Positions 6,733 through 42,573 are shown, counted from the whole stretch's first letter. The stretch: DNA of 56,495 nucleotides, filler included, from Stramenopiles sp. TOSAG23-6 (GCA_900128565.1; 4 parts of 4 records of this genome joined end to end with filler, not necessarily neighbours in it); one strand, 5' to 3'. Numbers and translations are program-made. Notes: generated by a model not told the origin, from the letters alone.

Positions 6733-6929
6733 TAAAATAATTTGTTTATTATCTGTTCAGAGTAATTTAAATAAATTGTAATTAAAAGAACACGACATCA
6801 CATTACTAAATTATTGCTTTCTCTTTTTGTCTAGCTAAGCTAGTAGTAGGTGTGTTGAATCTCTCTACTGAATCAATTAGTATAAGTTCGGAAAACGTAT
6901 TTTAGCCTAGATACTATAGATAGTTAATG

Positions 6930-19538: not shown

Positions 19539-22500
19539 TTAATCTCCATATCCAAATAAGGCTAAAGCAATGTTTTCGCCGATTTGATTAGGATCAAACG
19601 GCTCTCTCTCGATATCATTATATTCTGTTTGGTGTGATTTTCTTCTCTCTACCTTAGTTCTATTAGTATCATCTCCATATCCCTGGATGGAGTAATCTGC
19701 AGATAATCCAAATCCACTTTTTGAATTTTCAAGCGAAAGAAATTGACTCAAATCATCTCGATAATCATTTGGTTCACCTTTTGCAAAACTTCCAAATGTA
19801 AAANCNTCAGTTTTTTTTTTNANGCTTTATTCCACTCTTGTCCAGATCATCCACCCTATTTATACCACTCAAGCGCCCAGCGCAACTACAAGCCAAACGT
19901 CCGCATTCATGACAAGTATCATCTTCGTATCGATTGCGACCACCACCCACAATACCCCAGGATTCTGTTAACGCTTCTGTCACTTGGACTTCTTTTAGAC
20001 TTTTTGGTGAAGTTAGGTTCAAATTACGGTATGTAGCCCTCTGAGCAAGCTTTGGGGAATGTGCTAATCCTTTGACTTTTCGGTTAGTTATAGTATTTAG
20101 CTTTTTCTTTAATTTATGTTTTTTTGAACTAAATCCGCGCTTTTGTAAAGTATTTTTTGACTTTCGAAATCCTCTTCCTTTTGATAGAGCAACGGCCTTT
20201 CCCGATTGTCGTTGTCGATGTTTAGTTGATCCAAATCCAAAACCTTTAATATTTGGTGCGGATAAGGCTTTCATTCGGATCTTCTTATTCCGAGGTATCT
20301 TCCTCAAAACTGGGCCTCGCCTGTTTAAAAGAACCTGCTCGCGGCTTTCTTCTAATGCTACTTTCAATTTTACACTATCAGACTTCAGTTTTCTATCAAT
20401 TAGTTTTTTGTTCATACGTATCTGTTTCTCCATGTCTAATTGGAACTGTTTTTCGCGCTTCAATAAGTTGGCATTTCTACCTTGAGCATGGCGAAGATTT
20501 CTTATGCTTTCTACAGATGATTTCTTTCGATGTTGCCTGAGAGATTTTACTTCATTTATGCTTTCACGATCCACGGTTGCATTTGATGTTTTGTTTACAT
20601 GAGAAAGTAATAACTGCTCTGCCAAGTCAAGTCGACTTTTCCCTGTAGAAAAATGAGTTTCATCGCGTAAAAACGACCTTTTAGCATTTTTAGCAATATT
20701 ATTCACAAGGGATTTTGGTCCAGATGTTTTCATTGTTACCACTGCTTCTAACTTACCATCACTTATTTCTGAAGCTAAATCACGACCTTGAAAGAGATCA
20801 TTAGTTGGCGTATCAATGAGAGGGTTTTGAAGCGATTCATTACTATTATTTCTATCGACTTTCTTGAAAACATTGTGATGCTCCTTTTGTGTCGCCAAGA
20901 AGCTAAGAAGTCCTCGTCCTTTGGAAGCAATCTTAGTATTTGGTGTTGTCTTTGTTTCTTGTTCTTCACCAAGTTGCTTTTTTGGTGACTCGCTCACTAT
21001 TTTTTGTAAATGCCTAGAGATATGCTCGTCTTTATCAATATCAGCACCAATACTATCATTGGAAATTGAGTTGGGAAGTGTAGGAAATGGTTTAAGAATT
21101 GATTTAGGATTTTGAATGCCAAGTGAAATAGCTTTCTTTCTCCAATCAGCTTCAAGTTTTGATTCATATTGTGCAATGATATCCCTCTCAGCCGAAGAAA
21201 TCTTGTTTTGGGTCACTATCTCCATATTGCGGTTACTTAGCGATGCTTCGCCGCTTGTATGATCGGCAGCTTTCAAGAGGACTCCTTTATTAATATCAGC
21301 ATTTTTCAAAAGTCGTTTTGCATCATGAATATCGCGCTTAATTTTATGTTTTTTCATTTTGAATCTTCTTACTTGATGTACACTCTTTATTTTGATTGCC
21401 CCAGGAGTGTCAATATCATCAAGTTTTTCAGTTCTTATTATTTTTCTACTTGTGCTTTCTTTTACGCTATTTGACTTTATCTCTTTAATTGCCGAATTTG
21501 CGTTTTCTTTGTATTCTGTTGGTAATTTATCCACAAATAATCCAGGTCGTGCCTTCTCGTCGCCAGTAAAAAGTTGTGGAGCTAGTCTCCGTTTCTCTTC
21601 TACTAATTTTCGAAGGTCAATCACAAGAGATTCTAGTCTATGTTTCTCTGCTTCCCATTCCATTTTATCACTTCCATACTTATCAACCAATTGAGCCATG
21701 GATTCACCAACTTGTTGCTCGCGAAGCTCGATGTTTTTGTGCTTCACTTTTAGCGCAGCTTGTAAAGTTTCCACATCTTTTTTTGATATCTTGACTTCCT
21801 CTTTCAGTGCCCGCATTTTTTTTGCGTGGACTTTTCTAAGAGTAGTTATCTGAGCCTTCTGCGTTGCAGCCTCTCGAATAAATTCACAAATATGAATATG
21901 GCCCTCTGATTGTGCAACATCTTGTGGAGTTTGACCATTTGTATCTTTGGCCATCAAGCTAGCACCATTAGCACATAGAAATCGAGCAATTGAGAGGTGG
22001 CCCCGTTTACAAGCATAATGCAGAGCTGTCCATTTCTTACGATCTTCCTTCATAATCAGTGGAATCCACAGTTGTAATCGCCGTGCTTCACGTAAACCTT
22101 CCGGGTCATCGCCAGCCTCGATAGTACCTGTAACAGCACAACAGGTTTCATGCAGGAGTTTGCAAATATCCACACTTCCTTGCCAAGCAGCTAAATCCAA
22201 AAGAGTCCTTCCAAAGCCATCAACTCTAGTAATATGTTCAATAAGTTGTTTTTCTCCTCCCTCACGCAAAACATCTAACAACCACACAACTGATTTTAAT
22301 GATTTCTCTGCTTTTATTCCAAGGCCTCCAATTGGACATGATAAGATTGTGTGGTGTATTGGTGATCTTCCTGCTGAATCCAAAGCAGTTGTGAGAGCAC
22401 CATGTGAAACTAGTAATTTCATTGCAGCAATATCTGCTGCGCGAGCTGCATGATGAATGAGCTGAAGTCCATCTTTATCCGATATATCAACTGGGATAAT

Positions 22501-25500
22501 ACTGAGTACTTGATCAAGCCATACTACATTGCCCATTGCACAAGCTTCCATTGCAACTTTAACTTGGTTTTCTGGTTCCACTAGAAGCAAACGTTGTCGT
22601 ATTTTCAATGCGTGTTCTGCTTCTGCCTGGCGTGCATTAGCTGCTGCTATTTGGGCAGCTGCCTTTGCTGCTGATTCTTTCAATATAGCTTTCTCTAATG
22701 CTATCTCAACTACTTCTACCCCAAAATCGCGCAAACCTCTAGTAACCGAGGGAAGCTGTCCGCGTATTTTAGACCGTCTTAAAGATTCTTGTTTTTTTTC
22801 AGCAACATTATTTATAGCCTTTTGTACTTCCTCGGATGCTTCTGCTACAGTTTCATACGCTTCTAATTCCAAAGCTAACTTTTCTTCACGGGCAAAAACT
22901 ACTGCTTGAGGCTCTTTAAGTTCCCAAATATCCGCCGGTAACATTCCTTTTGTATTATTGTATGCTTCCAAATCTTTCGCATGTTGTTTTTTTTCAGCTT
23001 CTTTGGCTAACACAAATTGCCTTTCTTTTTCAATTTGTTTTTTCTCTTGTTCTCTATCATATCGTTTCTTTCTTGCTTCATTTTGCCTAGCTACAATAGT
23101 CTCTTTCCATCTTGCTTGTTCTTGCTCGCGGAGAACTTCTCTCGCAGCAGAGCGGCGTAATATGTCTGCGCGTCGAATCGCATTCTCCACAGTATCCTTC
23201 AAGCTTTCTGGTTCATCCGATAATATATGTCTATACATAAAAGGCCGAAATTGGTGTTCTTTAAAATTGGATTTAGAAAACAGTATTCGCGCAGCCTCCG
23301 CAGTGGTTACATCATTACCAGGTATTTTCTTTCGAAGCCCCGTGGGCCCATCAACAAAATTTTCTTTTTTGGCAGTGTTGAAGTTGGCATTCCGTTCTTC
23401 ATCACGCCGTGTTCGCCATTGCTTCAATAGCAAAGCACGTTGTTGCTTGATGTGAAATACTTCTGGATCTTGTGTAGCTGTTTTCACCATTTCTCTCGCA
23501 GAAATTAATCGCAAACGTTCAGCTTTTATATTATTTTCAATTCTGTTGTCCTTTTCGTATAATACACTGTAAAGCTCATTTCCGTACTCCTTTTCTTTAG
23601 AGGAAGTTGTAACTTCGATTATAGTTGCTCTCACCCACGCATCATTTGTATTTACAAGAACAGGCATACGATTTGAGAGCTTTGCACCAGCTCGAGGCAA
23701 ACCAAACTTTCCAAATATCAGTGATGGGGCTTCGTTTATCTCATTGGAAGATTTGGCATGTATACCAGAACTTTCGAGTTTAGGAGAAACTATTTCATCA
23801 TGTAATTCTGTATCCCGATTTCTATCTAATGTAGAATGACTAATATATTGTTCTGGTTCTGTTGTAATTGCCAAGGCATCAAGTAAACCATCGTCAGGAA
23901 TTCCTGTTGGAAAAATATCTAAATTTAAGGCAGCAAAATTTTCAACATGTTGTTTTTCAGCTGAAGGTTTGATGGATAATCTGTCTTTGTTCTCCTTCTC
24001 TTGCTTCCATATTTTTGCCTTCTCAAGACGTGTAGGCTTGCGATTTGATTCAAATGCAGGCTTTCCAAGTTCATCAAGAACTTGCTGGCCGGTGCGAAAA
24101 TCTCTCGGCAGTACACCATCAATATCAGCAAAAGCATCCACTGTCTGAGTATCAAGGGAACCTTTTGTTGCTGCATTTGCAAGTGCTACATTACGAGATG
24201 TAGTCTTTGTTAATGCTGCAGCTAACGAATCATCATTTTCAGCTAGGAGAGTAATCATCTCTCGATCAATTGCAATTGCATCTTTGGAGCGATACTTTGC
24301 TGTGCTAGAAAGCACCCCATAGTTACTTAAAACACTTGTTGCTGTCTTTGTTAAATTTTCCCATTCAGCTTTTTCAGTGGCAATTTCTTGGGCAACTCTT
24401 AATTGTAACTGAATGTCCTTTTGTGCCATTATTTGTTCTGCTGCAGCTTCACCAGCGGCTTGAGCCATGATAGCTGGTGAACCCCCGGCTGCCATTACCG
24501 CCTTAGCTGCTGCTGCAGATGCTTGTTGTGTACTTGCACCGGATATAATTGCACAATTGGCGGCAGCTTTACCTGCTGCAATTGCTGCAGCTTTTTGATT
24601 AAGCTTGGGCTGATCAAACCCAGCAAATTCAACTTCAGCTGGGGCGAAATCTTTTGCATAACCTGCTGGACCTAATTTATTCTTTGCTTCTGCTACCCTT
24701 TTGACATCTCGTTCATCAGGAACAATATTTCCAGTCTTTTGTGCATTTAAAATTTTCTCAAGATCAATGTTTCCTTCATCTTGGTCATGTCTCATTTTGT
24801 ACTTAACGTCTTCAATCCTGTTATTCTCTGTATCAATGAGTTGCCTCGCATATCCCAACAACTCCTTATATCTGCGCCTTCCTTGGACACTCTCACGATC
24901 CAGAGTTCGTTGTAATTCAAGACCAATTGCATCTTTTCTATTATTAGCAGCAGTGTTCATATTTTGTTGTGCCATGTTTATTTGTTCACGTTGTACACTT
25001 CGTGTAGCTGCAGCGGCTGTGAGTAAAGAAAGGAAAATAGACACTGAGAGTTTTGCATCATAACAAATTATGGCATTTGCCCTGGAAAATCCCAGAAAAC
25101 GCAAGCGTGTTTCATCCATAGCTTTAACCGCATGAAATGCGAGATCGACAGTTGCTGGTTTAATATCATATCCACGAAGAGATGCAAGACCACATTCAGC
25201 ACCATAACGCAAAAACCCTCGATTATCAATCTGTAGAAGTTTAAGTCCTTTTGGTTGCAATGTACCCCAATGACTACGTTCCATATTTTTGAAAATTGTG
25301 GTACTCTTATTGGCTTTTGCTAAACCAGCAATAGTGATGCCTGAAATTTCACGTGTAACCCGAGAACCTTTTTTTCCATCTCTTGATCTGGCACCAAAAG
25401 CATCATGTGAAGCAAACTCGGCAAATGTTATTTGTAATTCTGGTGACGTGCCTAACGTTTTTTCTAATTCGTCAATTTTAGATTTACGATGCTGAGCCAA

Positions 25501-27540
25501 GCTTTCTTTTTCTGCATGTTTCAATTGCTTTGTAGGAATTGATTTAGTAGAATCCCTCATTTGAATTGTGGCGTTCTTTTCCGTCTTTTTCTTTGCTTGT
25601 ACACCTTGCGGATGCTCATTCATTGATTCTTCATAGGATTTATTTCTTGACTCTCCCACTGATTTAATTTTTGATTCTTCCATTGCTTTATCTGTCGATT
25701 TCTCAAATATTTCGTTGATCTCCTTTTCTGGCGCTTGATGTTCTAGCAAGTCTTCCACAGTATCATTTTCTAACGTATCTTTTGAATTAAGACTACCGGT
25801 TGAAGTTTTTGCAGAGTGCATATGTCCAACATTATTTTCGGTTGAAACTCTGTCTGAAGGTACTGGCGAACTCTTTGTTTGTGGAAATTTAACATGCTGC
25901 GAAAGTTTACTAGGGTTTAAAATATTCTTCTGGTAACTTTCGGTATGTATTGCTTTCTTTGTGTCATATATTCTATCTACTTCAGATGTATCAATTCGTC
26001 TTTCTTTCACTTCTCGTTTATACGCTGCCCCAATTAATGCTACTTGGGTATCATTCAGTTGTAAGCTCTCAGCAGCAATTCTTATTATATCTGAAGCACT
26101 TGCGTCAGTATTTTCCTCGCAACTCTTTTCTACGGCTACCACAAAGGCTTCAAATAACTCACTTTTAAGTCCAGCTTTTGATGCTGCAGAAACGGCATCT
26201 GTTAATATGTTGACACTTTTGGCATCAATCAATGTATCATCCGGTGAAGAATGTTCCTTTAATGATTTTAATTCAGTATTATATTCAATGCTGTTATTAG
26301 AAGTTTTAATATTACCACAAAGTGGTACAGACCCCTTTGCATTCTTAAACTCATTGATTGACCAGTCCATTTCTTCGGCCAAGTCAGCTAACTCAGTACT
26401 CGACACACCAGCAGTAGTTGCCGCAAAAATCGCAGCTTCAGTCACTTCAGGAGATTTTGCCAACATTTGAACATCTATATTTGTATTGCTATTATTTTTA
26501 ACCCCACTCTTCGCAAAACTGCTTCTTTTATCCCTCTTTACTGCTTCAGCAGAAGCACCTGCAATGGCACTGGCTTGTTGCTGTGTTAGTCCAGCCACAG
26601 CAGCCGCCGCAACAACAAGGTCTGCAACTTCAGTTGCAGCATCAATCTGTGTTTTAGATGGAGAAACACTGGGGAGCAATCTTCGTTTGGGACTGGATAT
26701 ATTATGTCTGCCATAACTATCAGTGCTACGACCTGTATAAGGCCGTTTAGTGCTGAGTGGTCTATAACTATCTCTACTTCTACGACTTAATGCACGCGCA
26801 CCACTAAATGGTCTATAACTATCTCCACTCCGACGACTTGTTGCACGAGTTCTGCTGAAGGGTCTATAACTTTCTCTACTTCTTCGACTTGCTGCACGAC
26901 CTTTTAAATTGATATAATGTGCCATCACATCAACATCTTGTGCTGTTATTTTAGAAGTGTCGCTACGGAAGCTGTTCTGACTACTATGTGAAAAGGCAGA
27001 TCTCCGGGAAAAACCTCGCGAATTGTTTTCTATTATTTTTTTATTTTGTTTCGACAGTGTTTGCTGTAGATTGGTGGGAGACAGTCTATTGTTTTTCATT
27101 CTAGATTCCACAGGAATTACACGATCGTCGTTGTATGTTTGTTCTATACTATCCTTATCATATTTAATATTTCGTTCCATAAGTAAAGCTAGTCGCTGTC
27201 TAGATGATGACATATCTTGACGGTGGTGCTTACTTTCATCTAAATCCACGTATTGGGGGGTGATATAGGCATCCCTTATCTTAGTCTCAATTTTTTCCGT
27301 ATGTTCTCCTTTTTCTTTATTCGATGGATCACTCTGATCCATGGTCAAATTTTTGAGTTCTTCACCGAGTCGGGGGTCTTCATGCAATGGTTGTAGCTCA
27401 GGGAGGGCTCTAAGAGCGTCAGCGGTTGATTCAAATGGTGGGTATGAAGGGGGATGTGGCTCGTGTCGAACTTTTAAGTCTTTCTTTTCTTTCATTCTAA
27501 AAGCAATNNNNNNNNNNNNNNNNNNNGCTTCTATAGCCAT
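19539..27540 (-). CDS. Very large intronless protein with p25alpha-like, Tudor-like and ankyrin-repeat regions
   Basis: 2592-aa ORF. Ankyrin motifs GLQLIHHAARAAD, GRTLLDLAAWQG, WTALHYACKRGHLSIARFL. The stop at 19807 falls in an N/homopolymer patch and another frame continues to ORF 19539. Confidence 0.75.
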
Positions 27541-27886
27541 ATTGCATACATGTATAGGTATGTAACATGAAATATGAGTAGTCAATCGGACATTACGGGT
27601 GATGAGTGAAATATAGTAATGTCAAATGGATACATAATACGTAAATATAGCCTATCCACAGTTTCACTACTGACGTGGGTACCATAGTATATAACTGTCG
27701 CGTCAGCATTTTAAAACACGAAATAACTGAAAAGTAACCAAAAAGATACAAACTGAATTCACAAAAGTTTAAACAACAAGGTGTCGACTATTATTGATCA
27801 CTTAAAGGGTTATCTTCTATAAATTGANNNNNNNNNNNNNNNNNNNNNNNNNNNNNNNNNNNNNNNNNNNNAAAGTATAAAAACTA

Positions 27887-28364: not shown

Positions 28365-28446
28365 AAAAAAATTAAATTCGAAATTTGTTAGGTACAAAAT
28401 TTCGTACGAAAAAAAAAAAAATTTGAAATTCATAATGAAAACGTAC
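28365..28446 (-). mobile_element. 5' part of introner-like intron, truncated by gap
   Basis: Minus: gt|GTACGTTTTCATTATGAA...TTCGTACGAAATTTTGTACCTAAC... then N. Confidence 0.8.
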
Positions 28447-29848
28447 ACCAAGTTGGCAAGTTTTTCATCAATAAAGGAAGGAAGCATAGCTGTATTAATT
28501 GTAAATTGTTGCTTCCATACCTTTTCAGGTGATACCGATGGATTACTAGCGACAAAAAATTCACTGTAAGGATCAGAAAAAATTCCTACTTCGCACCAAC
28601 TTTTTAAACAATTAAATAAAGGTTTTGTTAGTGAATCTAATTGGCTCTGAACAAAGTTACTTACTGTTATATCACCGTGTTGCATATGTAGATATATAGC
28701 AGATGCAAGCGCCCCTCCATGTATTGTGAAAAATATTCTAAAAGTTTGGATTTTTTTGTTAGGTACGGAATTTTCATCGAAAAAAAAAATAAAAGTGTTA
28801 GGTACAAAATTTCGTATGAAAAAAATAAAAAAATTTGAAATTGATGATGAAAACGTACATGAAGTCCAATAGATGAATCGGCAATTATTGCCATCAAGCG
28901 CAAGCGATCAATTGGTGTTTGTAACCATATAAACAATCGTCGCAATGTCAATGAAAAGTGCTGTGGTTTTCTATTTTCTCCTTCTTCTTTTTTATTATTT
29001 TTGTTTTGTAAAGCATCGCGATTAACTTGAGCTTGAATTATCGCAATTAATCTATAAAATTCGCTTAACTCAGTTTTCAATGAAAAACATAACGCATTTT
29101 GACATAAACCTGAACGGGTATCTTTTTCACAATGTTCAATGAAATTACCGAGCTTCCTAAAGAGCCAACCACCTTCAGTGATTTTACGTATCAAAATTCT
29201 CGTAGGTTTTGGAACTCCAAAATTAGCGCATACGACATAGCCTCGCTCAGTAGCATCATACTTAATATACGTACCATCAATACCCTGAAGAACAAATAAA
29301 ATATCTCTTATCAATAATTGCTCAGATACTTCAAATGAAAAGTTTTTACCAACGTTGTAGTGAGTCTCAGAAAAATTAATGGTTTTTGTAGTTTTTCCAG
29401 GGGATTTTTCACAGTGATTACTAGATAATGATACATTTTCTTTTAATGATAATCCTAGACTCGGTTCTAGCAAACTTGGTTGAAATGAAGGAGGGGAATC
29501 TGAACTCATACTTTGAGAACCACGTAGTGCATGGAGAATCTGAAGTACTCCACTTTTGTTCTGAATGGCGCCAGACTTTCTGAATAAATGACATAGCTCT
29601 CGGAATTTCAATGGGACGCTCGTTTCATTACTATTAACTCGAGCAAGATAACGCTCTATTTTGATAGCCATTGTATCAATATCATTCCTAGATAGTATTC
29701 GTGAGTTGGTGGTTGAGGTTGAGCCTACAATACGCACGCAGTATTCTAATAAACTTGAATGCTTTTCTTCGTTATGTGGGCATATACTGGACACAAGTCG
29801 TCGTAATAGTAACGCAACCACTTCTTCTGGTCTAGCACTACGCTCCAT
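28447..29848 (-). CDS. TUBGCP3: Gamma-tubulin complex component 3 (Spc98 family), 3'-partial; exons 29848-28859 and 28718-28447
   Basis: EVSEQLLIRDILFVLQGIDGTYIKY, GLCQNALCFSLKTELSEFYRLIA, LTLRRL, GGALASAI...HGD, DPYSEFFV, MLPSFI match GCP3 grip motifs. Confidence 0.88.
28719..28858 (-). mobile_element. Introner-like intron with two cores, GT...AT
   Basis: Minus: cat|GTACGTTTTCATC...gtacctaac x2...cacaataCAT|gga ggg gcg; restores GLH|GGALASAI. AGs at -19 and +4 are both out of frame. Confidence 0.88.
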
Positions 29849-30113
29849 TATATATCAAATGTAGTAACGCTATTTATTGAGTGTGGTTTTTTTTAGACAA
29901 ACAATACAATTTCAATCAACAATGCAATATTAATAAAGGAGGGTTCGCCGTGAAAAACCTTATCGTTGAAAATTTTACGGTGGTTTGAAATTCAAAAGAT
30001 GGAATAAACCTGCTTTATTAGTATCTCGTCCGTTTAGCTCAAGACGTTAGCGGTTAGGGTAGCTAAGAATGGAACAACTTCTTTTGTAAAAAAATTGTTA
30101 AAACATTATTGCG

Positions 30114-33100
30114 ATGGATCCCAATATATCTACAGATATGAAAGCAACAAAGGATCGCTTCGACACATTACTGAATGAACTTTGTAATGAAAATCCTGAT
30201 TTATCTGGAGTCGTGGTGGTATCTGATGAGAAGAGATTGAACGCAGTAAGGAAAGATTTTGAAGACTGTTCAAATCAAAAAGAATATCTTAGTGTTCTGC
30301 ATAGACACTTATTTCAAGAAGAACAAGCTCAATTTTGTGACAGTATAAATGTTCCTATTCGTTGGTTGCGAGAAGCATGTCGTAAAGATGATACATCTAT
30401 GCGGGAATCCCCGACCGAAAAGCAAGTCCGACTAGACGTGCAGCGTGATATAGTTGTAATCAATGACTCTACTTTTATTGGCGCTGATTCTGGTTTTGAC
30501 AAAATATTTAATCATCTCACAGGAAGCATCAAAGAAGTGGGAGAAAACGTAAACATCGATATAGAAAAACTAAATAAAGAAGCAATGAAAATTCTAACAG
30601 AAAGCTGTAGAAGTGTGTCTGCCGGCGATTCGTTTGATGCAGTAACAAATTTATTAAGTTCACCATATATCCATGTACGTTTTTTCTCATCATGAATTTT
30701 TTAAATGTATATTTTTTTCATAAAAAGTCATAGTCTTACAAAAATTGAAATTTGACATATATTTTTACAATAAATATCACACAAGATACTACTTGTTCAA
30801 AACCAATTCGTCTAGATGTTCATTTGGGTGCTTTTACAAATGGATGGGGTCTTGGTGTTGCAATAAATGTTGTGTCTCTTTTTAACATATGTTCACCAAT
30901 AACAGATACTGAAAATGAACCAAATATTTTACAAAAACTTTCAGTCACTTTTCAAAAAAAATGGTTATTAGATGTTGAAATTGGAAAAAGTATGAAACGT
31001 GCACCTAAAACAAAATACGATAAAGCAAATAATGAGATAAATACATCTAGTTATGTTCCAGATGATGGTGTGATTCTATTTTCACTGCGTTCAGAACAAA
31101 ACAAAACTGTGGATACTTCAATAATTAATGGGAAACAATATAATGAGAAAGATGAAACAAGTAGCAGCATTCCTATCAATCTCCCTTCAGATGAAAGCGA
31201 GGAAGATGGGATTATTTCGTCTGATTCTGAATTTGATCAAAATGGCAATGAAAAAGATTTCAATGAACGAAATAGCTCTGTAAATCATATGAAACGTTCG
31301 CTTAAGCGTGCTAAACATAAATCAAAAGCTCGGGCTCGTGCAAAACAAATGGCTGAAGCTGCAGGGATGATACGTAGCGATAAAACAAAGCAAGTAATGA
31401 ATCAAACAAATAATAATATAAATACAAGAAACAACTCTGCTAGTGGTGACACATTATCGACCTCAAGTCATTGGAATGGCCATTTATTAGAGGATACAGA
31501 TACGTTGGAAAATATGGCTTGCACTGAAGTCTTCTGCATGGGTGATAATTCACATGGAACTCTTGGATTAGGAGATTTAAACACGAGAAAAACTCCTTCA
31601 TTGTTATTAATACCTAGTGAAATTACTGGTCTTGCACGCGTGAAATCCATATCATGTAGTGCGTTACACTCTGTGGCTGTGACGGATCTTGGTATCGTCT
31701 ATACATGGGGATCAGGATCTGAAGGTGCATTAGGCCATGGTGATAGTGAAGACTCTGCAATCCCTAGATTTGTAGAATATCTTGCAACGATGGATCCACC
31801 TGTACAAGTAACTACAGTATCAGCAGGATCGGAGATATTAGGTGCGCATACCGCAGCAATTACATCCGGCGGAGAACTTTTTCTATGGGGTTTAGGTGTT
31901 GCCACGGGTCTCGGTAGTGGTACAAATGTTGAGCTCCCGAAACAAGTTGAAGAATCGAGGCTTGGAAGTGATAACCCTGAGAAGGGTGGAGGTATTGTGA
32001 CTGCTGTTGCGTGTGGGGGAGCATTTACAATTGCTGTAACTGCTGATGGGTCATTATATTCCTGGGGTAAGTGGGCGAGTGGTCGCCTGGGACTTGGCAT
32101 GCCTCAAGCACATAAAAGCAGAGCTCGAGGAAAACTTTTTAAACGAGCTCGAAATCCACGCTTTCAATTGGTTCCAAAACGAATTAAAAGTATTTTGCTG
32201 GACAAATTTATTACACACATTGCAGCTGGTGAGGCTCATGCATTGGCAGTAGACAGAGACGGTACTTTGTATTCGTGGGGCAGAGGTTCATCTGGTCAGC
32301 TAGGGACATCAAATAGTCGTGATAGTATGGAACCTATGAAGGTTACAGGTCAAGACGTGTACAATAGAAAAGTATTCCAAAGCAGTCAAATTATTCCGTA
32401 TACTTTAAACGGCAATCAATCCGAATTGAATCATTTAGGTCCTATTATATGTGTGTCGTGTGGTATTAATACTTCTGCAGCGGTCACACAAAATGGAAAG
32501 CTTTGGGTGTGGGGTGGAGGAGGCCGAAGAGTATTGGGGCTTGGCTTACCTTTGGGTAATAAACTTGCTGGTTTAACGGTTCAAAGACAAGCACAGATGC
32601 AAAAACTTGAAGATGAAGATAGTACCGAAGATGCAAGAAAACGACGCGGAGATTGGTTTTTGCCTCAACAAGTCAATGCACTATCTGAATTGCATGTTTC
32701 AGAAGTTTCGTGTGGCTCGCATCACATGTGTGCAGTGACTCGTCACGGTTCTTTGTATATGTGGGGTAAAATAAATGATGACCCAGTTGTATCTATACCC
32801 CGATTATTATCATCCATTGCGCCTGCTGGTGAGAGTCTAAAGGAACGCCAAGCGCGTGCTCTTGATCCAAGAAATAAACGCCAAAGGGAAGAAGAGGATT
32901 TAGGACAACGTCAAGTCATTTCTGTAGAGTGTGGTGGATCCATGATATTTGCATTAGCCCATAGTAATATATTGGGCAATGCAATGCTAAGTGAAATGGA
33001 ACGATGCGTCGCTGTTGTTATTGCTACTGAATCCCTTGACCCAACAGGATGTGATGCTACTATATTTGCATCGGGTAGACCGATATATGCACATCGCTTA

Positions 33101-34471
33101 GTACTTGGCTTGCGAAGTGAATATTTCCGTGAGCTTCTCTCAAAAGAACGAACAACACGACATGTCGAGCTTTTATTACCTGAAATATCATATACTGCTG
33201 CTACTTTAATGATACATTACTTGTATGCGGATAATGTTCCCGCAAGTAGTTTGAAACCGGGGTCGGCATTAGCACAGGAGTTAAGAGCTGTCGCGACAAA
33301 GTTTGGTTTGTCCAGATTACAACAGATTTGCGAATCTGCAATGGTAAAGGGTCAAATAATGGGTATGGATAAATCACCAACGAAAGTAATGCGAAGTATG
33401 CGAATGCGCTTGAGATCAACACTTGCAGATGATATGAGTTTGGCTGTTGGAAATCCAGCGTTTTCTGATGTGCGCATAGTTTCTGCTAAAAGTGGTAAAA
33501 GTGGAAGGGGCATACCGGCACATAGATTATTACTAATGGCTCGAAGTGCATATTTCCAAGCTATGTTTAACCAGATTGGTTATAATACTGGAGAACCAGA
33601 TCCTGAAACTGGTGTGTTACCTTTAGTAGAAGTACAATTACCTGACCATCCACCTGTTCTCATTGCAATTTTGAGATGGATATATTGTCGTAGATTAGAT
33701 TTGAAAGCACTATTATATGGAAGTAAAAAGAAGTCACAAAGTTCTGCATCAAATAGTTTACTTGTAGATCTTCTTCAAGCAGCACAACGATATGAATTAT
33801 TAGATATGGCTGAATATATCGCTAGCGAATGTGAGGGAGTACTGAATGATGCGTTGGGTGGATCTAATAAGAATATAGTCAGTAATGCGGCACAAGATTG
33901 TATACTTACACTCAAAGTATCAAATGCAATGAGAAACAGTTGTTTAGCTCAAGCAGTGCTTCATTGTATATCGTATAATTTACACATACTAATGCCTACT
34001 CCATCACAACAACAGAAAAACAAAANAAATGAAGATATCGTTCAAAGTTTTGGTAAATCTTTACGTGAAAATTCGACACTGTGTGACAAATTATTAACGT
34101 ACCTAAAACAATGCGAAAGGCGCCGATTCGTCCTCAAAGCTGCCGAGGAACGGCGATTGAGTCAACCTAATGATGTGGAATTTGAGTCAGAGCCATTTCC
34201 ATGGATAATCTTCTTAGCTGTACTAACGGTACTTACCATTTTAGTAACTACCTCTTTAGCTATGCCACAAGATTCTGGTTATAGAGAACTAATTCCTCTT
34301 TTTAATGTCATTGGCGCAATTGTTATTGTAGTTGCATCTTTCCTCAATATCGGAGGTTTAACGGATGGTTTGACAAGTGGCACTATAGATAAAGCCTCTA
34401 ATAATTTGGATAGACTAAAGCACCCGGCTGATGCTGATAGTAATAATAAGAATGTAAGTAATAATCTCTAA
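30114..34471 (+). CDS. RCC1-repeat plus two BTB/POZ domains with two C-terminal transmembrane helices; exons 30114-30674 and 30776-34471
   Basis: RCC1 blades (VYTWGSGSEGALGHG, LYSWGRGSSGQLG); BTB IYAHRLVLGLRSEYF and IPAHRLLLMARSAYFQAMF; two hydrophobic segments near the end. Confidence 0.82.
30675..30775 (+). mobile_element. Degenerate introner-like intron, GT...AT
   Basis: at|GTACGTTTTTTCTCATCATGAA...tttttacaataAAT|atc; in frame PYIH|ITQD; core eroded; first AG (+10) out of frame. Confidence 0.6.
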
Positions 34472-34625
34472 AATAATGATAGTACTTTTACTTTCATGTT
34501 TAAAAAGAATAAACTTTTATCAGAAGTATCAAAATTTTATCAAAAATATCTTTATCAAGCGTATTTCCCTCAAAGAAAATTTGTAACAACTAGAAAAATA
34601 CATTTATTCTAAATATGTGAACATT

Positions 34626-37160
34626 TCAAATGGATATAACAGGATACATTGCACTTTGAACTCTCCTCAAAACAGACTTTATTGTTGTAGATAGTTCTGG
34701 ATCTCCAGTAACAGCTTTATTTCGTTCATCAATTTCAGCTCGTCGTCCATCAACATTCACAACAATTAGTCTAGTTTTGCTATTCACTTCAACAGCTTCA
34801 CGACCAAACTGAGATCTTAATAGATTCTTTATCATATTAAATTCATCATCATCACCAGCAGTAGATGCCTCGCTACCTACACTAGTATTATTTTTCAATT
34901 TTGGCGAGTCGCTACTTAACGATGAAACTCGTTTTTTTCCACTCGTTTTTTTATCTGTTGAAGGCGCAACTTGTGACTTTACGTTCATTTCAGTTGCCAT
35001 TCGAAGACCAGCTACAGAACTCTGTGCAAGCATAGCCATCGATACAATTGAATCCGCGACCATATCAGCCACAGGACCACTATTCCATTCTAATGTTATT
35101 CGTCTCAATTTTCCATACCATGTGACAGTCACAGTATCACATACACGATACGATTGAATGTCACCATCAATCTGACCTCTTTGTCGCTCTTCACTAGCTG
35201 CTTTTGCTGCTTTAAATGCCGCTGTTGTTGTTTTTGTAGCATTCTCGGCATCACTCTTACTAGCATTAGATTTTTTTTTACCCTTTACATTTTTTTTCTT
35301 ACTATCGTCACTACTCTTTTCATCCAATGGATCCAATGGAATTATATTACCGGCAGTATCAAATTCACGAGGATTAAGTGGAGTTTTTACTTCATCAATA
35401 GCTTCAAACATTCTCTCTAATAACATAATAAGACTATCCAAACTATGATAAAAAGTGACATGTTGACGCTGTCGCACCATGCCAATACTTAATTCAGTAT
35501 GTGAACATATATCTTCGGCATCTAGTAACTGTAATTTAAAATCTCTTGATACGAGAAAACCACCAACTCGTTGAGGTGCTGATGTTACAGTCATTGTATC
35601 ACTATTTTTAGTACTATTTAGTAGAGTATTATGGAAATGTTTGGCACGTTTAGCTAAAGACCCAACAGCAGTTGCAAGACGAGATCGATCAAAATGCATC
35701 GAAATTTTACCAGGAGTTCCGTTCTGAGGGTTATGTACATTAAATGTCCCTTCTTTAATTTGTTGCTTATACATTCTTGCGAACTTATTTTTAAGACGAG
35801 ACATTACATTTGGATCTCCATGAACTAAAATAACATGTCTAGGTTTCAATTTCTCCACAAAATCTTTCGTTTCTAGAAAATCTGCATGAGCGGAGAATGA
35901 AACGACATCAATAGAGCATTTGCGCTGTAGGATTTGACCACTCAACGCTGTAATTTCTTTAGGTTCATCGATAAGCTTATGTGCCAATGTACCTTGAGTA
36001 TTATACCCTGCAAGTACAACACCATTGCGTTCATTTGATGCCCATCTTTCTAATAATTGGCGGGAGATTCCTGACTGAAGCATACCAGGACTAGCCATTA
36101 CAACACAAGCACCAACATCTTCAAACTCATTTAAACTTTTTAAATTAGAAATGTGCTGAAATGCAAAAGGATTACCATGCATATCTGCACGACGACGAAT
36201 ACGGTTGTTCATCATATTTGTATACGTTTCATACACTCTGAGAGCTTTATTTGCAAGTTTTGAGGCGTAATATATTGGAATACTTTGTAAATTTGGATTT
36301 GCTTCCCAGTACTCATCAAGAATCAAACATAACTCTTGTGCTCGACCCAATGCCCAAATTGGCATTAAACAACGTCCCTTGCGACGCACAATACGTTCGA
36401 CAATTTCTAAAAGGCGTTTCTCACGCTCAGGTTGTTTCTCATGAACTTGGATTCCATATGTCGATTCTACTATTAAAACTTCTGGAGAAAAGTCTGGAAT
36501 TTCAGCCGCCTTTAAATGTCGATCTTCGCCTCTGGAATAATCACCAGTATATAATACACGAATACCTGCAATTTCTACAGCAAACATTGCGGCACCAAGT
36601 ACATGTCCAGCTTGATATGCCCAGAAACGAATTCCAGCGACTTCACACTCCTGGTGAAAGTCTAATAATTCAACTTTTGCCATACAGCTTTCGAGATCTT
36701 TATCATTATATAGTAAATCATTATCACCAATCTGAGACACTTTCATGTAATCCGAAAGCATTACTTTCATTACAGCTTTCGTAGGATGTGTCATAAATAC
36801 ACGACCCTTAAACGTCGTTTTTTCAGTAAAGTAGGGCAAGCTTGCAGCATGATCGACGTGGAAGTGCGTCAGTAACAAAACGTCAACAGAAGCAGGATCA
36901 ATTTCATCAAAAAATGGAAGTGCACCTTGGCCATGGTAACCAGGATGTATACCACAGTCAAATAATATTTGTTTACCCTTGTATTTAAGCAAATGGCAAC
37001 TGCGTCCAACTTCTCTGCCTGAACCTAAAGGCATCATCAACATCTCTGTGTCAAACTCGTCTACCAATGACTGATCCAAAGTTCGCTTAGTAGCACCAGT
37101 TCTCCCAAGATTTACAGCATTTTGGAGCGTAGGTGCATTTTCCAACCCACTGATGCCCAT
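34626..37160 (-). CDS. CPSF3: Cleavage and polyadenylation specificity factor subunit 3 (CPSF73/Ysh1), intronless
   Basis: PLGSGREVGRSC, THFHVDH, AGHVLGAAMF, YTGDYSR, ESTYG, ALGRAQEL, MASPGMLQSG, SFSAHAD, LVHG; C-terminal LEWNSGPVADMVADS. Confidence 0.96.
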   Translation of the reverse strand: MGISGLENAPTLQNAVNLGRTGATKRTLDQSLVDEFDTEMLMMPLGSGREVGRSCHLLKYKGKQILFDCGIHPGYHGQGALPFFDEIDPASVDVLLLTHFHVDHAASLPYFTEKTTFKGRVFMTHPTKAVMKVMLSDYMKVSQIGDNDLLYNDKDLESCMAKVELLDFHQECEVAGIRFWAYQAGHVLGAAMFAVEIAGIRVLYTGDYSRGEDRHLKAAEIPDFSPEVLIVESTYGIQVHEKQPEREKRLLEIVERIVRRKGRCLMPIWALGRAQELCLILDEYWEANPNLQSIPIYYASKLANKALRVYETYTNMMNNRIRRRADMHGNPFAFQHISNLKSLNEFEDVGACVVMASPGMLQSGISRQLLERWASNERNGVVLAGYNTQGTLAHKLIDEPKEITALSGQILQRKCSIDVVSFSAHADFLETKDFVEKLKPRHVILVHGDPNVMSRLKNKFARMYKQQIKEGTFNVHNPQNGTPGKISMHFDRSRLATAVGSLAKRAKHFHNTLLNSTKNSDTMTVTSAPQRVGGFLVSRDFKLQLLDAEDICSHTELSIGMVRQRQHVTFYHSLDSLIMLLERMFEAIDEVKTPLNPREFDTAGNIIPLDPLDEKSSDDSKKKNVKGKKKSNASKSDAENATKTTTAAFKAAKAASEERQRGQIDGDIQSYRVCDTVTVTWYGKLRRITLEWNSGPVADMVADSIVSMAMLAQSSVAGLRMATEMNVKSQVAPSTDKKTSGKKRVSSLSSDSPKLKNNTSVGSEASTAGDDDEFNMIKNLLRSQFGREAVEVNSKTRLIVVNVDGRRAEIDERNKAVTGDPELSTTIKSVLRRVQSAMYPVISI

Positions 37161-37502
37161 TATATTTACAGTGCAAAATCTGCACTTCAATACTTTTGGA
37201 GAGGCTGTAAGCTGTGTGTGAGTGTTTCGCGCATGGCGGTAAGGTCCTTCGGTCACTCACGCGTCAATTATTACTAATCGTAATATTCCATTTATTTTTT
37301 GATTGATCCTTGATTTTTTATTTCGTGTTTTTTGTTGCTGTCATGACTTTGTGACTTTCGTTCGTACTTCGTAGCTAATGAAAGTGAAACTATTACCTTT
37401 TCCTATCTAGCTAGGACTATAGTAGGTAAAAATAGTAAGTAGCTGCAATGCTGCACTTACAATAATACTACTAATACAATTAGAATGATAATATGCCAAT
37501 AA

Positions 37503-38034
37503 TCAGTAATTCTTTAAATACAGCAAAGTGATACGCAGAACGAGACGCATAGTGATACNNNNNNNNNNNNNNNNNNNNNNNNNNNNNNNNNNNNNNNNNN
37601 NNNNNNNNNNNNNNNNNNNNNNNNNNNNNNNNNNNNNNNNNNNNNNNNNNNNNNNNNNNNNNNNNNNNNNNCAGTAATTCTTTAAATACAGCAAAGTGAT
37701 ACGCAGAACGAGACGCATAGTGATACGCAGAGTAAAACGTATAGTGAGACGCAGAGCGACACGCCATGGGCGATACGCATAGCGAGACACAGACCGATAT
37801 ACAGAGCGAGACACATAGCGATACGTAGAGCGAGACACATGCCACTAAACAGTAATTCTTTAAATACAGCAAAGTGATACGCAGAACGAGACGCATAGTG
37901 ATACGCAGAGTAAAACGTATAGTGAGACGCAGAGCGACACGCCATGGGCGATACGCATAGCGAGACACAGACCGATACACAGAGCGAGGTACATAGCGAT
38001 ACATAGAGCGAGACACATACCAATAATCAGTAAT
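37503..38034. repeat. Tandem repeat, 178-bp unit built from degenerate 12-bp subunits
   Basis: cagtaat-initiated units at 37672, 37850 and 38028 (178 apart), a partial unit before the N gap, and subunits like atagcgagacac / agagcgagacac. Confidence 0.9.
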
Positions 38035-38990
38035 ACTTCAGATTCAGAGTGATACACAAAATGTACTGCAAAATACATAGTTATATGCACAGTGGGATTC
38101 ATTGTATAGGCACCAACCCTTAGAACTGGATTGGACAAGTTGTGAAATAGAAACCTCTGTTCATTGTATAGGCACCAACCCTTACAACTGGAAATACTCT
38201 ATCCATCATTTTTTTTTTCTCTTTTTTTTTTTTCGTAGATAATTTCGTACCTAAGTATTTTTTTTCTTCTTTTGGGCATCAGCCTTTACAATTGGACTAT
38301 CATAGGATCGCTATATTTTCCAGACAATTATACCCTAGTACACATCACTTTACAGTAGATACAGACCAAATGGACAAATGCTACTTCCTACACTTCTGCA
38401 CCAACTCTTTATTTATAATGGATCAGCTATGTGAATAGGGGCGGCTGAGGAAGGTAGGTCGGATTGTGTGAACCTCAGCTACAACCCTTTTTTTTTGAAT
38501 GTTGTCTATCAGTACAGGAATGACAATTTTACTCTTATGACTTGAATGTTATCTATCTCTTCAGATATGTCATTTGCAGTTCTTACTAATCGTGGGTATG
38601 ATACTGCAGCATGTGCCAATACATGGGCCAATTCAGTTTCATCACCTATATTTGCGATTTTGTAATTTATGATTATTGGCAATCAGTGGTGTTTCCATTA
38701 TTATATAGTCTGTAGTTTCATCTTTTTAAGATGTGATTATGGACATAAATATATTCCCTGGATTTACTTCTGATCTTTTTTTTTTTTCGTGAAAGGGGGA
38801 GTAACGAGATAGCTGTTTTTTGGCCATATTTCGTGTTTCGCAATGGACAAGGACCTCGCGCGGATTGACTCTTTTGTTTTCTTTTCATGTAATAAACTAT
38901 TTTTCCAGTATAACCATTTTAGTTGTTGCACTGTGATGACATACAACGAGAATTATTGTATATAAGAAATTCATTTACAATATTCAAACT

Positions 38991-39961
38991 ATGGTACTTG
39001 ATTTTGCAAGGTTGCGAAAGGAAATGAAAATGCAAAGGAAAAAAAAAGTTGAAGTCAAGCAGACTTCAACTCTTCTAGATGACTCCCTGACTTTCAATTT
39101 GGCATCACGCCGCCTTACAATTCCTGGCTGTAAGTATGAAGTATTTTATATACCAAACTTTTTGAATGAAAAAGAGAGTCAATTGGTAGACGCTGGAATT
39201 TTTGAATGCTCTGGTGTGTGGTCGACTCTATCCAATCGAGAACTTCTCAATTTGGGTGGTATTCCACATCCAAGTGGGATGATGGCAGATGAACTCCCTA
39301 ATTTCACAAAAGTCATTTGTGATCGTCTTGTCTCTTCAGGTATATTCCCAAGCAATTTATACCCAAACCAAATTCTTGTAAATAAATATACACCTGAGGG
39401 AGGAATTGCTCCACATCAAGATGGACCATTGTACTATCCTCAAGCTGCTGTTCTTTCTCTACGAAGTGCTTCTGTAATTCATTTTTGGACTTTACCAAAT
39501 GATAAATTTAAAAAAAATGGTTTTGAAGTTGTCGCAGACAAAGATCCTTTATTTTCTGTAGTATTAGAACCGCGTAGTCTATTAGTATTTAGCAAAGAAG
39601 CATATAGTAATCTTCTTCATGGAATTTATCCCGGAAATTCTCCTATTGTTGTAAACCCCAAAACATGTACGTTCATCATATTTTTTATTTTTTTTTCGTA
39701 CGAAAATTTGTACCTAACAAATTGTAACGTTTTTTTTGAAATATTTTTCGTAATACATGTAACTTGAAAGAACTTTACTGCAATCAACAAAAAATAAATA
39801 TATCTATTGGCGATGAAATAAAACGAAACAATAGAGTTAGTTTGACTTTTCGTACTGTCAAATTTGTAAAAAAAGAATCGAATGATTTTTTATCAGATGA
39901 AGAAAAATTTGAAAAAAAAAGGAGATGGAATTGGTGGTTAAGTTCAATTTCAGAAGACTAA
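38991..39961 (+). CDS. ALKBH6: AlkB-family 2OG-Fe(II) dioxygenase, ALKBH6-like; exons 38991-39666 and 39759-39961
   Basis: YIPNFL, NRELLNLGG, PNQILVNKY, PHQDGPLYYP (HxD), LEPRSLL, LHGI; terminal RVSLTFR lies in exon 2. Confidence 0.85.
39667..39758 (+). mobile_element. Introner-like intron, GT...AT
   Basis: at|GTACGTTCATC...ttcgtacgaaaatttgtacctaac...cgtaataCAT|gt; brings RVSLTFR into frame; the first downstream AG (+12) creates TAA. Confidence 0.87.
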
Positions 39962-40379
39962 ATCTAAATAATATACGCCGTTATTTTTGTTGTTCCTCAT
40001 ATTTTACATTTATTTTTAATTCCCGGTTCATCGTGGTTCATATCGATCAGAATTTGTATTTTATTATTATAATGTAAAATTTAATCTTGAGATTTACAAG
40101 TTAATTACCAAGAGAAATTTCAAATTTGGAAACTTTGACTCTTTGAGATTTGATTGCGATTGGGCTTTAATTTCGATTTCCGGATTTCCGGATTTCGATG
40201 ATTTCGATGAGTCAAAATTGATGGCCATCGAAGACTCATCTGAGTCAAAGCCACGAAAGTTCACACGACCGCGACGACCACATTCCACACACTTCCTTTT
40301 TTAAGAAAAGTAGATTTCTTGCTAGCCAGGGAAGAAAAGTTGTCAAAGTCCATTGATACCCGTGCATATAGCCTGACGT

Positions 40380-42360
40380 ATGCCTAGAGAGTGTATCATG
40401 AGTTCTGGATTTGATCTTTTATCGAGTCTACAGGACAGACTCGCTCAAAAGAAGCTAGAACGCCATTCCATTGAAGAAATGGCAAAAACTTTAGATCTTC
40501 AGGTAAGCGGTGCTTTGAAAAGAGTCCCACCTCGACCGCGATTATCAATGAACGAAATTGATCAAAAAATTTCGGAATTAGATTGGAAACGTTCTACTTC
40601 AAGCCAAAGTCTTCAAGAAGAAAAACAGCTGTTGCGTCGTATCAAGGAGCTCAATCAAAACAAACGCGAACATGCCGAAGTGGCCAAGTTTCAATACATG
40701 GTTGATGAACTCAGAGCAAAATCCAAACAAGCCCGAGCTAAACTTCCAATAATGAATATTGCTATTAAAGAACTTCAGGATGCACTTCGTCGATTTGAAG
40801 TCTCACGCAAAATTTTAGCTTCTACCGGAGAAACTGTGAGGCCGTCAGATCTCCATGAGGTTTCAGTTGATATTCCTCCTTCTCAAATGAATACTCTTCA
40901 AGGACGTGAGGGTGAAAATGTCCAAAATATTGAAAACAAATATCATGTTGTACTTGATGTAGATTTTCGTCGATATAAAGTGAATATTTTAGGTTCTGAG
41001 ACTTCTGTAGCTGCAGCTCTAATTGAAGTAGATAAAATTGCCAAAGCAATCGTTCTAAAAGTAAAACTCATGCCTGTAGCTTTAAATATACTCAATTGTC
41101 AAAATCTTCATCATATAAGAGCAATAGAAGAGAAATTTGGTATTATGTGTGAACTAAATAAAATCAAAAGTTTTCTACTAATGTATGGACTCAGAGAAGT
41201 TTGTGAGGAAGCAAAAAAAGAAGTTGATATTATAACTTCTGGCATGGTTAGATTACCCATTGAGAAAAAAATTATATCAAGTATAATCGGAAAAGGAGGT
41301 TCAACTATCTCTGAGCTTCAACGCAAACATATCGTCAATATTAAAATTTTATCAGTGGATGAGAAAACAGGTTTGAATAAAGCCAGTGGTACTAATAAAA
41401 TTTGTCAAATTTCAGGGTCTCCCGAGTCTGTCAAATCTTGTGAGGTTGATATTCATAATATTATCAATGAAAACAAAAGAATAACAGAAATAAAGCCAAT
41501 TTCAACAAATGTTAGTAGTGCAGTTATCGGAAAGAAAGGAAATGTTATTCGTGAAATTGAACGAAAATCAAGATGTAGAGTCAATATTGAAAATGTTAAC
41601 TTTCGAGCTATCAATAAACCAAAAACTGTAAATATCACATTTAATGGAACGCGAACTCAAATTGCAGCTGCGCGTGTTTTGGTTGAAGAAGCAATTAGTA
41701 AATGGCATCGGGAAAATTGTCTTGTGGAGTTGACGATAAACCAAAGATTAGCATTATCAAGATCCCAAACTTTGCTAAAATCCATTCGAAAAGAAGTAAC
41801 TAAATCTGTACAAATTGAATTACTACGTAATGAAAATGTTCTTCGCATATCAGGTGAAGAAACAAATGTAGAAGCTGCGTTTGCAACTACAAAAAACATT
41901 CTTGACAAGGTATGTAGTAAATCTATTACATTTCATTCAAATGTCATTCCAGCAGTTATTGGTAAAAAAGGTGCAAAAATCAAAGAAATTGAGACTACTT
42001 CAGGTGTTCATGTAAAGATTGATCGCGGAAGTGATTGTGTTGAAATTATTGGAAGTGTCGAATCTGTTCAAAAGGCCGAAGGAATACTTCTTGAAATAAA
42101 AAGACAAAATAGTATTGTAGATATTCCTATACAATCAAATATTATTGGGGAGCTTGTTGGAAAAGGTGGAAGTGCAGCAAAAGCATTTGAAAAAGAGTTT
42201 AATGTTCGATTTGATGTTCAACGAAAAAATACAGAACCTACAGCAATGCTCACACTACGCGGTGAGGAAGAGAAAGTAATTATCGCAAAGAAAGCAATTG
42301 AAAAAAAATTGGACATGTGGGAAAAAGAACATTTTGTTTTAAAATTATTTCCAAGTGCAT
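40380..42360 (+). CDS. Multi-KH-domain RNA-binding protein with N-terminal coiled coil, 3'-partial
   Basis: GxxG loops IIGKGGSTI, VIGKKGNVI, VIGKKGAKI, LVGKGGSAA; ends at element donor 42361 followed by a gap. Confidence 0.85.
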
Positions 42361-42419
42361 GTATGTTTTATTTTTTTTTCAATTTCAAATTTATTTTTCG
42401 TACGAAATTTTGTACCTAA
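42361..42419 (+). mobile_element. 5' half of introner-like intron, truncated by gap
   Basis: at|GTATGTTTTA...ttcgtacgaaattttgtacctaa then N. Confidence 0.8.
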
Positions 42420-42573
42420 NNNNNNNNNNNNNNNNNNNNNNNNNNNNNNNNNNNNNNNNNNNNTTAATTAATTAANNNNNNNNNNNNNNNNNNNNNNNNN
42501 NNNNNNNNNNNNNNNNNNNTTTGTACCTAACAATTTTTTTTAGATTTTTTTGAAATATTTTTCCAAAATACAT

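Follow-up and report, generated by a model that had tools for sequence, protein, structure and literature searches.

How does a gene keep its reading frame across an interruption that starts like an intron and does not end in AG? The question is raised by a gene fragment for GCP3, a core subunit of the gamma-tubulin complex, on the minus strand of the 56,495-nt stretch of DNA analysed here (the window), in which two coding segments are separated by 140 nt that begin with GTACGT and end with CAT. The original prediction had described this interruption as an intron at positions 28719-28858 with an AT acceptor, and its statements on the sequence are correct. It is still unexplained why AG closes almost every eukaryotic intron, and each independent lineage that has dropped the AG rule is a natural test of what the spliceosome requires. 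The reading we favour, with a probability of roughly 0.6, is that the 140 nt are a spliceosomal intron formed by a single copy of a repeated, introner-like element, cut GT..CAT by the major spliceosome, with AG being dispensable for the family.

Identification of the gene as GCP3 was borne out on both sides of the interruption. The Pfam family GCP_N_terminal (PF17681) matches exon 1 with profile positions 1-130 at residues 182-327 (E 1.2e-27) and exon 2 with positions 138-234 (E 8e-23), and the profile runs on from position 130 to position 138 across the junction. Among solved structures in the PDB, all three matches of exon 1 are GCP3 (best E 6e-24), and exon 2 matches three GCP3 entries (E 2e-13 to 3e-12) ahead of GCP2 (3e-5) and Spc98 (1.5e-4); the best solved relatives of both exons are the GCP3 of human, that of Xenopus and a third GCP3 entry. 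The profile and the closest structures, used here in place of a tree, support the assignment of the fragment as a GCP3 orthologue. From what is known of GCP3, the gene is presumably essential. Its probable ATG is the third codon of the exon 1 open frame, at about 29848, and the remainder of the gene, including the GCP_C_terminal domain (GRIP2, which binds gamma-tubulin), lies beyond the contig end and outside the window.

Both exons were joined in silico and, as had been suggested along with the original prediction, the spliced translation, which reads ...SIGLH-GGALASAIYLHMQHGD across the junction, was aligned with homologues. The 22 homologues used (21 from a HMMER search and one from a word-based GCP3 search that gave two matches) are those from the top of the match lists that are long enough to cross the junction; the other HMMER matches were not aligned. 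Exact removal of the 140 nt leaves the junction free of gaps in 21 of the 22, the exception being P0129, which has an insertion upstream of the junction. GG stands directly after the junction in 21 of the 22 (GC in P0148), HGD is kept in 15, and LHGGALASA of the spliced product is found identically in two environmental homologues, which agrees with the earlier statement that GG(A/E)LAS...HGD is conserved in GCP3. Residue 327 of exon 1 is aligned with residue 387 of human GCP3 and the first residue of exon 2 with residue 393; five residues lie between these points on both sides, and this equal spacing indicates that there is no insertion or deletion at the junction. Exact removal of the 140 nt is what the GCP3 protein needs, and only the non-AG junction restores the conserved GG..LAS...HGD block. 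A search for short ORFs in the database that span the junction found none.

With the GT donor at 28858, the frame is kept only at the AT end (offset 48). The nearest AGs, at 28739-28738 (19 nt before the intron end) and at 28716-28715 (4 nt after it), both shift the frame with this donor, as had been claimed. The further claim that the AT acceptor is the only local solution went too far, since a GT-AG pair shifted by 4 nt is also in frame and the CAT repeat around the intron permits an AT..AC cut. In the first of these solutions an ordinary GT-AG intron would use the second GT (28854-28853) as donor and the AG at 28716-28715 as acceptor, both sites being moved by 4 nt; it would be canonical and in frame and would give GLHVRALAS. 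The VR of this product would replace the GG of 21 of the 22 homologues and occurs in none of them, and its donor, GTTTTC, would be a poor one, lying 4 nt downstream of GTACGT, the conserved donor of the family. As the shifted pair would also leave unexplained that nine of ten related copies are in frame at AT (see below), and as the RNA does not agree with it, we consider it highly improbable.

Parts of the stretch are present in four seawater metatranscriptome runs, which come from two studies and whose contigs were placed on 28365-42419. Across several genes of the contig that carries GCP3, RNA contigs of low depth match with 0-2 mismatches, and such near-identical contigs over several genes imply that the organism was present in these metatranscriptomes. 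Record 9 of run X2 covers 28455-28701 in exon 2. Record 27 of run X4, a polyA library, is 260 nt long (depth 2.1), and its letters 15-260 lie on 28476-28721 with 0 mismatches and 0 gaps; the match breaks exactly at 28721 and leaves 14 letters unplaced. Because exon 2 starts at 28718 and the CAT before it is common to the end of exon 1, 28721 is the break point predicted for the spliced mRNA. Unspliced RNA is predicted to match past 28721, a cut at the AG 19 nt upstream to extend the match to 28737, and the 4-nt-shifted GT-AG pair to give two mismatches in 28715-28721, where record 27 has none. The break in record 27 fits the GT..AT junction and not the shifted canonical alternative, and even if the record simply ended at 28721, the assembly graph would branch there between the spliced and unspliced forms. 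Organism-specific RNA cover was found neither over most of 28834-29854 nor over the intron proper.

On the element itself (28365-28833), three of the four runs reach summed contig depths in the thousands, compared with single digits on the flanking exons. This very high depth is repeat cover from other copies, and the abundance of element RNA suggests that genomic copies are many, that unspliced precursors are present or that relatives carry the same family. Apparent RNA joints from 28417-28445 to 28780-28797 and from 39749/39758 to 42358-42371 link different copies of the element and were left unused. Record 16 of run X2 stops at 42361, which is 1 nt beyond an exon end; the intron there runs into a linker between contigs, and the two sides are not one gene.

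The element is repeated throughout the window. The GTACCTAA block occurs at about 30 places, and at no fewer than 25, and the repeat families D3-D5, D8 and D13 all describe this one introner-like element, of which 12 full copies are present and align well. Copies lie in GCP3, in an M16 peptidase gene, in a 2OG-oxygenase-like ORF, in an ankyrin ORF and in others, and each of the 12 full copies is oriented in sense with its flanking ORFs (a strand count that leaves the fragments at 6557 and 16677 unclassed). Their common parts are a 5' GTAYGTTTT, a middle block TTTTTTTCGTACGAAATTTTGTACCTAAC, a T-rich stretch and the 3' consensus TTTTTGAAATATTTTTCCAAAATACAT, with GTAYGT, CTAAC and the T-tract conserved across the copies. 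The GTACCTAAC block ends 39 nt before the cut in GCP3 and 34-48 nt before it in the sibling copies. The GCP3 copy owes its greater length (140 nt, as compared to 90-116 nt in its siblings) to a second middle block. In most copies a 12-nt perfect palindrome, TTTCGTACGAAA, lies within the middle block just before GTACCTAAC; in the GCP3 copy it reads TTTCATACGAAA (for example at 28807-28818 on the minus strand), and it might be a binding site for a transposon protein or a local stem. The end dinucleotide is AT in ten copies and AG (as ACAG) in two, the last three intron bases being CAT or TAT in the ten and CAG in the two. At the level of the whole element, the two ends show an inverted match, (AT)GTAT(G)TTTT versus AAAATAC(AT).

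Two loci on the plus strand hold compound or tandem copies. The one at 2009-2330 has two middle blocks 67 nt apart (2217 and 2284). In the one at 2668-2906, an element end, cacactacat, directly abuts gtaagt..., and another end, cacaacacag, comes 93 nt later; taken as one GT-AG intron, the whole 239 nt are in frame. The stretch 42361-42573 was considered as one intron and rejected. Its frames misfit at GT..AT, as expected for two halves that belong to different genes: a 5' half at a contig end, after a KH-domain ORF, and a 3' half at the start of the next contig, before an EF-hand exon.

Most copies are in frame when cut at AT. With the upstream frame taken as the longest open one and a minimum of 40 open codons required downstream, the frame was kept at AT in nine of the ten AT-ending copies (1570, 10968, 13103, 39667, 45301, 45679, 50479, 50724 and 28858), compared with a chance of 1/3 for each (P 3.6e-4). 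On either side of the copies the flanking ORFs run on for hundreds of codons, reaching 732 and 1039. In a gene at 44465-46030 (plus strand), three copies lie within 650 nt, and removal of 45133-45222 (AG-ending), 45301-45395 (AT-ending) and 45679-45773 (AT-ending) gives a single open frame, whose translation appears to hold a bHLH-like stretch. For the introns of the M16 peptidase gene, comparison with insulin-degrading enzyme gives a spacing of 62 residues versus 60, with a 46-residue middle exon that has no significant match.

These observations bear on the possibility that the 140 nt are a dead or polymorphic transposon insertion which is not repaired in RNA, the function of the gene and the RNA contig both stemming from a different copy or an allele free of the insertion. 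The short inverted ends, the AT repeat and the many copies do give the family the look of miniature inverted-repeat transposable elements (MITEs); moreover, the window holds only part of GCP3 and RNA libraries could contain some DNA. Dead insertions would not be expected to lie 12 times out of 12 in sense with splice-like signals and 9 times out of 10 in frame at AT, both of which argue against them, and the long open frames on either side, the second copy of the element within GCP3 and the identity of the polyA-derived RNA contig to the locus over 246 nt point the same way. We consider a dead insertion quite improbable. The original prediction had argued the same way from GCP3 itself, and the in-frame copies in other ORFs of the window likewise speak against dead insertions. 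Dependence of this core gene on a non-AG splice, which had also been put forward, is supported by the collinearity with orthologues, by the family statistics and by one RNA contig.

A mechanism can be proposed on this basis. A short, non-autonomous, transposon-like element (introner) would have made the GCP3 intron, bringing with it its own 5' splice site (GTAYGT), the branch-point-like GTACCTAAC, a T-rich tract and the conserved 3' end ...AAATACAT. It would be flanked by two copies of AT or CAT, probably a target-site duplication left by a small DNA transposon whose inverted ends are short; the CAT repeat around the GCP3 intron may be such a duplication. The major (U2-type) spliceosome would cut before GT and after CAT, and splicing would thereby remove the element together with one copy of the repeat and restore the GCP3 frame (...GLH|GGALAS...), the usual AG at the intron end being dispensable for this introner family in this organism. 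Save for AG, the element has what a major-type intron needs, namely a consensus 5' site, CTAAC about 35-50 nt before the end and a T-rich tract, and its strict sense orientation fits RNA splicing. We infer from this that the element is removed by the spliceosome, in the GT..AT rather than the AT..AC register, and that it is or was mobile.

Several observations weigh against this proposal. The RNA support consists of a single contig of depth 2.1 with 14 letters past the break, compared with the 31 letters required for a contig to count as bridging; these 14 letters were not read, and that they overhang at this end of the minus-strand record 27 is our interpretation of the placement table. DNA from an allele that lacks the intron would give the same picture, which polyA selection makes less likely. 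The terminal inverted repeat of the element is short, about 6-10 nt, and neither a transposase nor an empty site was seen in the window. The AT-ending copy at 55636 keeps the frame only when cut at an AG lying 5 nt upstream, and the AT-ending copies at 13103 and 50479, which lack the upstream AT, each have an in-frame GT-AG alternative. The splice register cannot be read from the mRNA because CAT both precedes GT and ends the intron, so that cuts at GT..AT, TG..CA, AT..AC and CA..TA all give one identical mRNA. Finally, AT stands before GT in 9 of the 12 copies (background frequency of AT 0.093, P 9e-8) and in 8 of the 10 AT-ending ones, the copies without an AT..AT repeat (13103, 50479 and the AG-ending 45133) all have an in-frame canonical AG solution, and no end other than AG or AC is strictly forced anywhere in the window.

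The last of these points favour a serious rival, in which the same intron and the same mRNA, hence an identical product, would be obtained by AT..AC chemistry. The intron would then run from ATGTACGT to CAATAC (28860 to 28721), 2 nt leftward at both ends, and either spliceosome, major or minor, would splice it; a first base A with a last base C is the known alternative to G with G. Introns of the minor (U12-type) class resemble the GCP3 intron in that AT..AC termini are available in this shifted register. The start, however, would be ATGTACGT (ATGTAYGT in the family), which is neither the minor-type 5' motif ATATCCTT nor the ATAAGT of major-type AT-AC introns, whereas the GT register gives a perfect GTAYGT. 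The branch motif of minor introns, TCCTTAAC, lies 10-26 nt before the 3' end, and the branch-like CTAAC lies outside this range at about 41 nt. As both the 5' motif and the branch distance depart from these consensus values, the minor-spliceosome version is unlikely. The upstream AT is explained equally well as a target-site duplication. The AG-ending siblings, in addition, share the 5' end of the GCP3 intron. Among them, the copy at 42632 must be cut at GT, and cutting it GT-AG gives an intact EF-hand loop, DINKDGVLSKEE. Its 5' context, gat|GTATGTTTTA, is common to the AT-ending copy at 10968, and the intact loop indicates that the GT register is used at this 5' sequence. The first catalytic step of splicing is taken before the 3' end is chosen. 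Because AG- and AT-ending copies share the 5' context and this step precedes the choice of the 3' end, we favour the GT..AT register and regard AT..AC splicing as unlikely, though well worth keeping in view.

Removal at the level of DNA deserves mention, as AT direct repeats, short inverted ends and a removal that leaves one copy of the repeat recall the TA-bounded sequences eliminated in ciliates; the elements would then be excised precisely and one AT left in an expressed copy of the genome. RNA splicing needs the strict sense orientation, GTAYGT, CTAAC and T-tract, and DNA excision does not. Moreover, the AG-ending siblings resemble normal introns, and element sequences are abundant in RNA libraries, as unspliced precursors would be. 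We know of no nuclear dimorphism in stramenopile flagellates, and precise DNA excision is the least credible of the explanations considered. A structural model based on pairing of the intron ends was also tried and is unsupported: no fold of the GCP3 intron stands out (z 0.25), and the family consensus folds only into a local stem of five pairs (TACGA/TTGTA part) without compensatory change. Rfam gave 0 matches on the whole 56-kb window, hence none to the U11, U12, U4atac and U6atac snRNAs of the minor spliceosome.

The host can be placed by CPSF73, an uninterrupted gene at 34626-37256 (minus strand), whose nearest named relative, the EukProt CDS GSMAST32..., shares 79% identity with it, ahead of proteins from oomycetes, xanthophytes and brown algae at about 53%. 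The name GSMAST32 presumably denotes a MAST-3 single-cell assembly, and by this similarity the organism appears to be an uncultured, MAST-3-like marine stramenopile. An exact scan of metagenome contigs with the 22-nt core of the element gave 0 matches.

The canonical introners of Micromonas and Aureococcus, reportedly described by Huff et al. in 2016, are short non-autonomous DNA elements that insert in sense and are spliced by means of one element-borne site and the duplication. The family described here resembles them in its short, apparently non-autonomous elements, its short inverted ends, its probable target-site duplications, its sense insertion in genes and, under the proposed mechanism, its manner of splicing, and differs in that theirs use GT-AG. 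Euglena nonconventional introns lack GT-AG borders and are routine in essential genes (PMC12501133), a likeness to the GCP3 intron as read here. They depend on base pairing of their two ends and have no GTAYGT at the 5' site, and in this they differ from the GCP3 intron and its family consensus, in which no end-pairing structure was found.

The closest likeness in the intron ends is to fritillariid larvaceans. The report on them (PMC13326754) describes 3'AT as the commonest intron end in Fritillaria pellucida (44%) and F. borealis (34%), with a YAY triplet next to the 5' site and another closing the intron and with the U-rich tract kept; the introns are spliced by the major spliceosome, helped in F. 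borealis by duplicated U2AF subunits, and the non-canonical ones are attributed to introner-type transposons. The GCP3 intron shares the non-AG 3' end, YAY at both positions, both being CAT here, the U-rich tract and, on the reading favoured here, the introner origin and removal by the major spliceosome, while its family has a strong GTAYGT 5' end, in contrast to F. borealis with mostly AG/AC and AG/AT. Larvaceans and stramenopiles are different lineages, and since the host is a stramenopile by CPSF73, the likeness would be convergent and functional only. Fritillaria as the source of the DNA, which the YAY and 3'AT likeness had led us to suspect, was rejected on the same CPSF73 similarity.

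The Syndiniales genus Amoebophrya offers another comparison. Its introners (PMC7789003) have 3-5 nt direct repeats over their borders, inverted end repeats and non-GT-AG borders, and they resemble our family in being repeated introns of a marine protist with direct repeats at the borders, inverted ends, borders other than GT-AG and a probable MITE-like origin. Their inverted repeats of 8-20 nt form a hairpin and their terminal dinucleotides are inconsistent (PMC7789003), whereas the copies of the GCP3 family all start with GT and end with AT or AG, and have short inverted ends and no outstanding fold. The GC content, about 54-58% there versus 35.6% in the window, differs as well, and an Amoebophrya origin was rejected on this ground.

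Introners with non-canonical 3' ends are thus known elsewhere, and we found no report of them for this lineage. What is known of MAST-3 genomes comes only from single-cell assemblies, which are fragmented and were annotated with standard gene finders. A full-text literature search, whose scope leaves aside subscription journals and supplements, found nothing on introners in MAST-3. The MAST-3 genome paper PMC5778133 uses the word intron twice, incidentally, and no word beginning with splic, and the word intron is absent from PMC8163842 and PMC12614181. A 2025 survey of introners expects AG or AC at the 3' end and drops families whose sites are unfamiliar when RNA support is lacking (PMC12130899), and a family of AT-ending introners would for this reason tend to be missed by it.

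Whether we are dealing with a MAST-3-like stramenopile whose proliferating introners are routinely spliced GT...CAT|, even in essential genes such as GCP3, is in our view an even bet. If so, its major spliceosome would have relaxed the recognition of the 3' splice site independently of larvacean tunicates and Syndiniales, and essential genes could be colonised by such elements and survive; to have a third marine lineage in which non-AG introns arose from transposons would be of use. There would also be consequences for annotation. Many genes in such genomes would be broken by gene callers that insist on AG, an unrecognised class of introns would split or hide genes and break contigs at repeats, as at GCP3, and the low gene counts and apparent pseudogenes published for MAST-3 single-cell assemblies might partly be artefacts.

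Table 1. Features of the GCP3 fragment and its intron, in window coordinates.
Feature	Coordinates	Strand	Description
GCP3 exon 1	28859..29854	-	996 nt, open frame of 332 codons, phase 0; ends attggacttcat
GCP3 intron	28719..28858	-	140 nt; starts GTACGTTTTC (GTACGT), ends ttttcacaatacat (cacaataCAT)
CAT preceding the donor	28859..28861	-	Direct repeat of the last three intron bases (28719-28721)
5' splice-site hexamer GTACGT	28853..28858	-	GTAYGT in the family; also heads the AG-ending copies 42632 and 45133
First GTACCTAAC block (branch-point-like CTAAC)	28797..28805	-	Preceded by TTTCATACGAAATTTT; (near-)invariant in 12/12 aligned copies
Second GTACCTAAC block	28758..28766	-	A about 41 nt before the 3' cut; A/T-rich stretch after; offset 48 to first exon base
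Conserved 3' block tAGAATATTTTTCACAATACAT	28719..28740	-	Ends in non-AG CAT; holds the out-of-frame AG at 28739-28738
GCP3 exon 2	28447..28718	-	90 codons + 2 nt; starts ggaggggcgcttgca, translation GGALASAIYLHMQHGD
Second introner-type intron in GCP3, 5' part only	28365..28446	-	GTACGTTTTCATTATG...GTACCTAAC; truncated by the contig end
Artificial contig linker	28265..28364	.	44 N, then TTAATTAATTAA, then 44 N

The window consists of separate contigs chained by linkers, and genes that a linker separates are not necessarily connected. Linkers identical to the one next to GCP3 lie at 14087-14186 and 42420-42519, and further runs of N at 27508-27526, 27828-27871 and 37559-37671. Contigs end within introner copies at 28365 and at 42419/42520, and the introner family seems to break the assembly.

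Away from GCP3, an ORF at 19807-27621 (minus strand) runs for 2604 codons without interruption and has ankyrin-like repeats in its translation; this long intact ORF shows that many genes here are intron-free, while others hold several introner copies. At 6877-8184 (minus strand) a 72-nt tandem repeat of at least 15 units, about 70-76% alike, encodes leucine-rich repeats within a 671-codon ORF. Two 178-nt tandem copies, 96% alike, lie at 37672-38027 beside a run of N, and the RNA contigs placed on them differ at many places, which suggests that these derive from other strains or copies.

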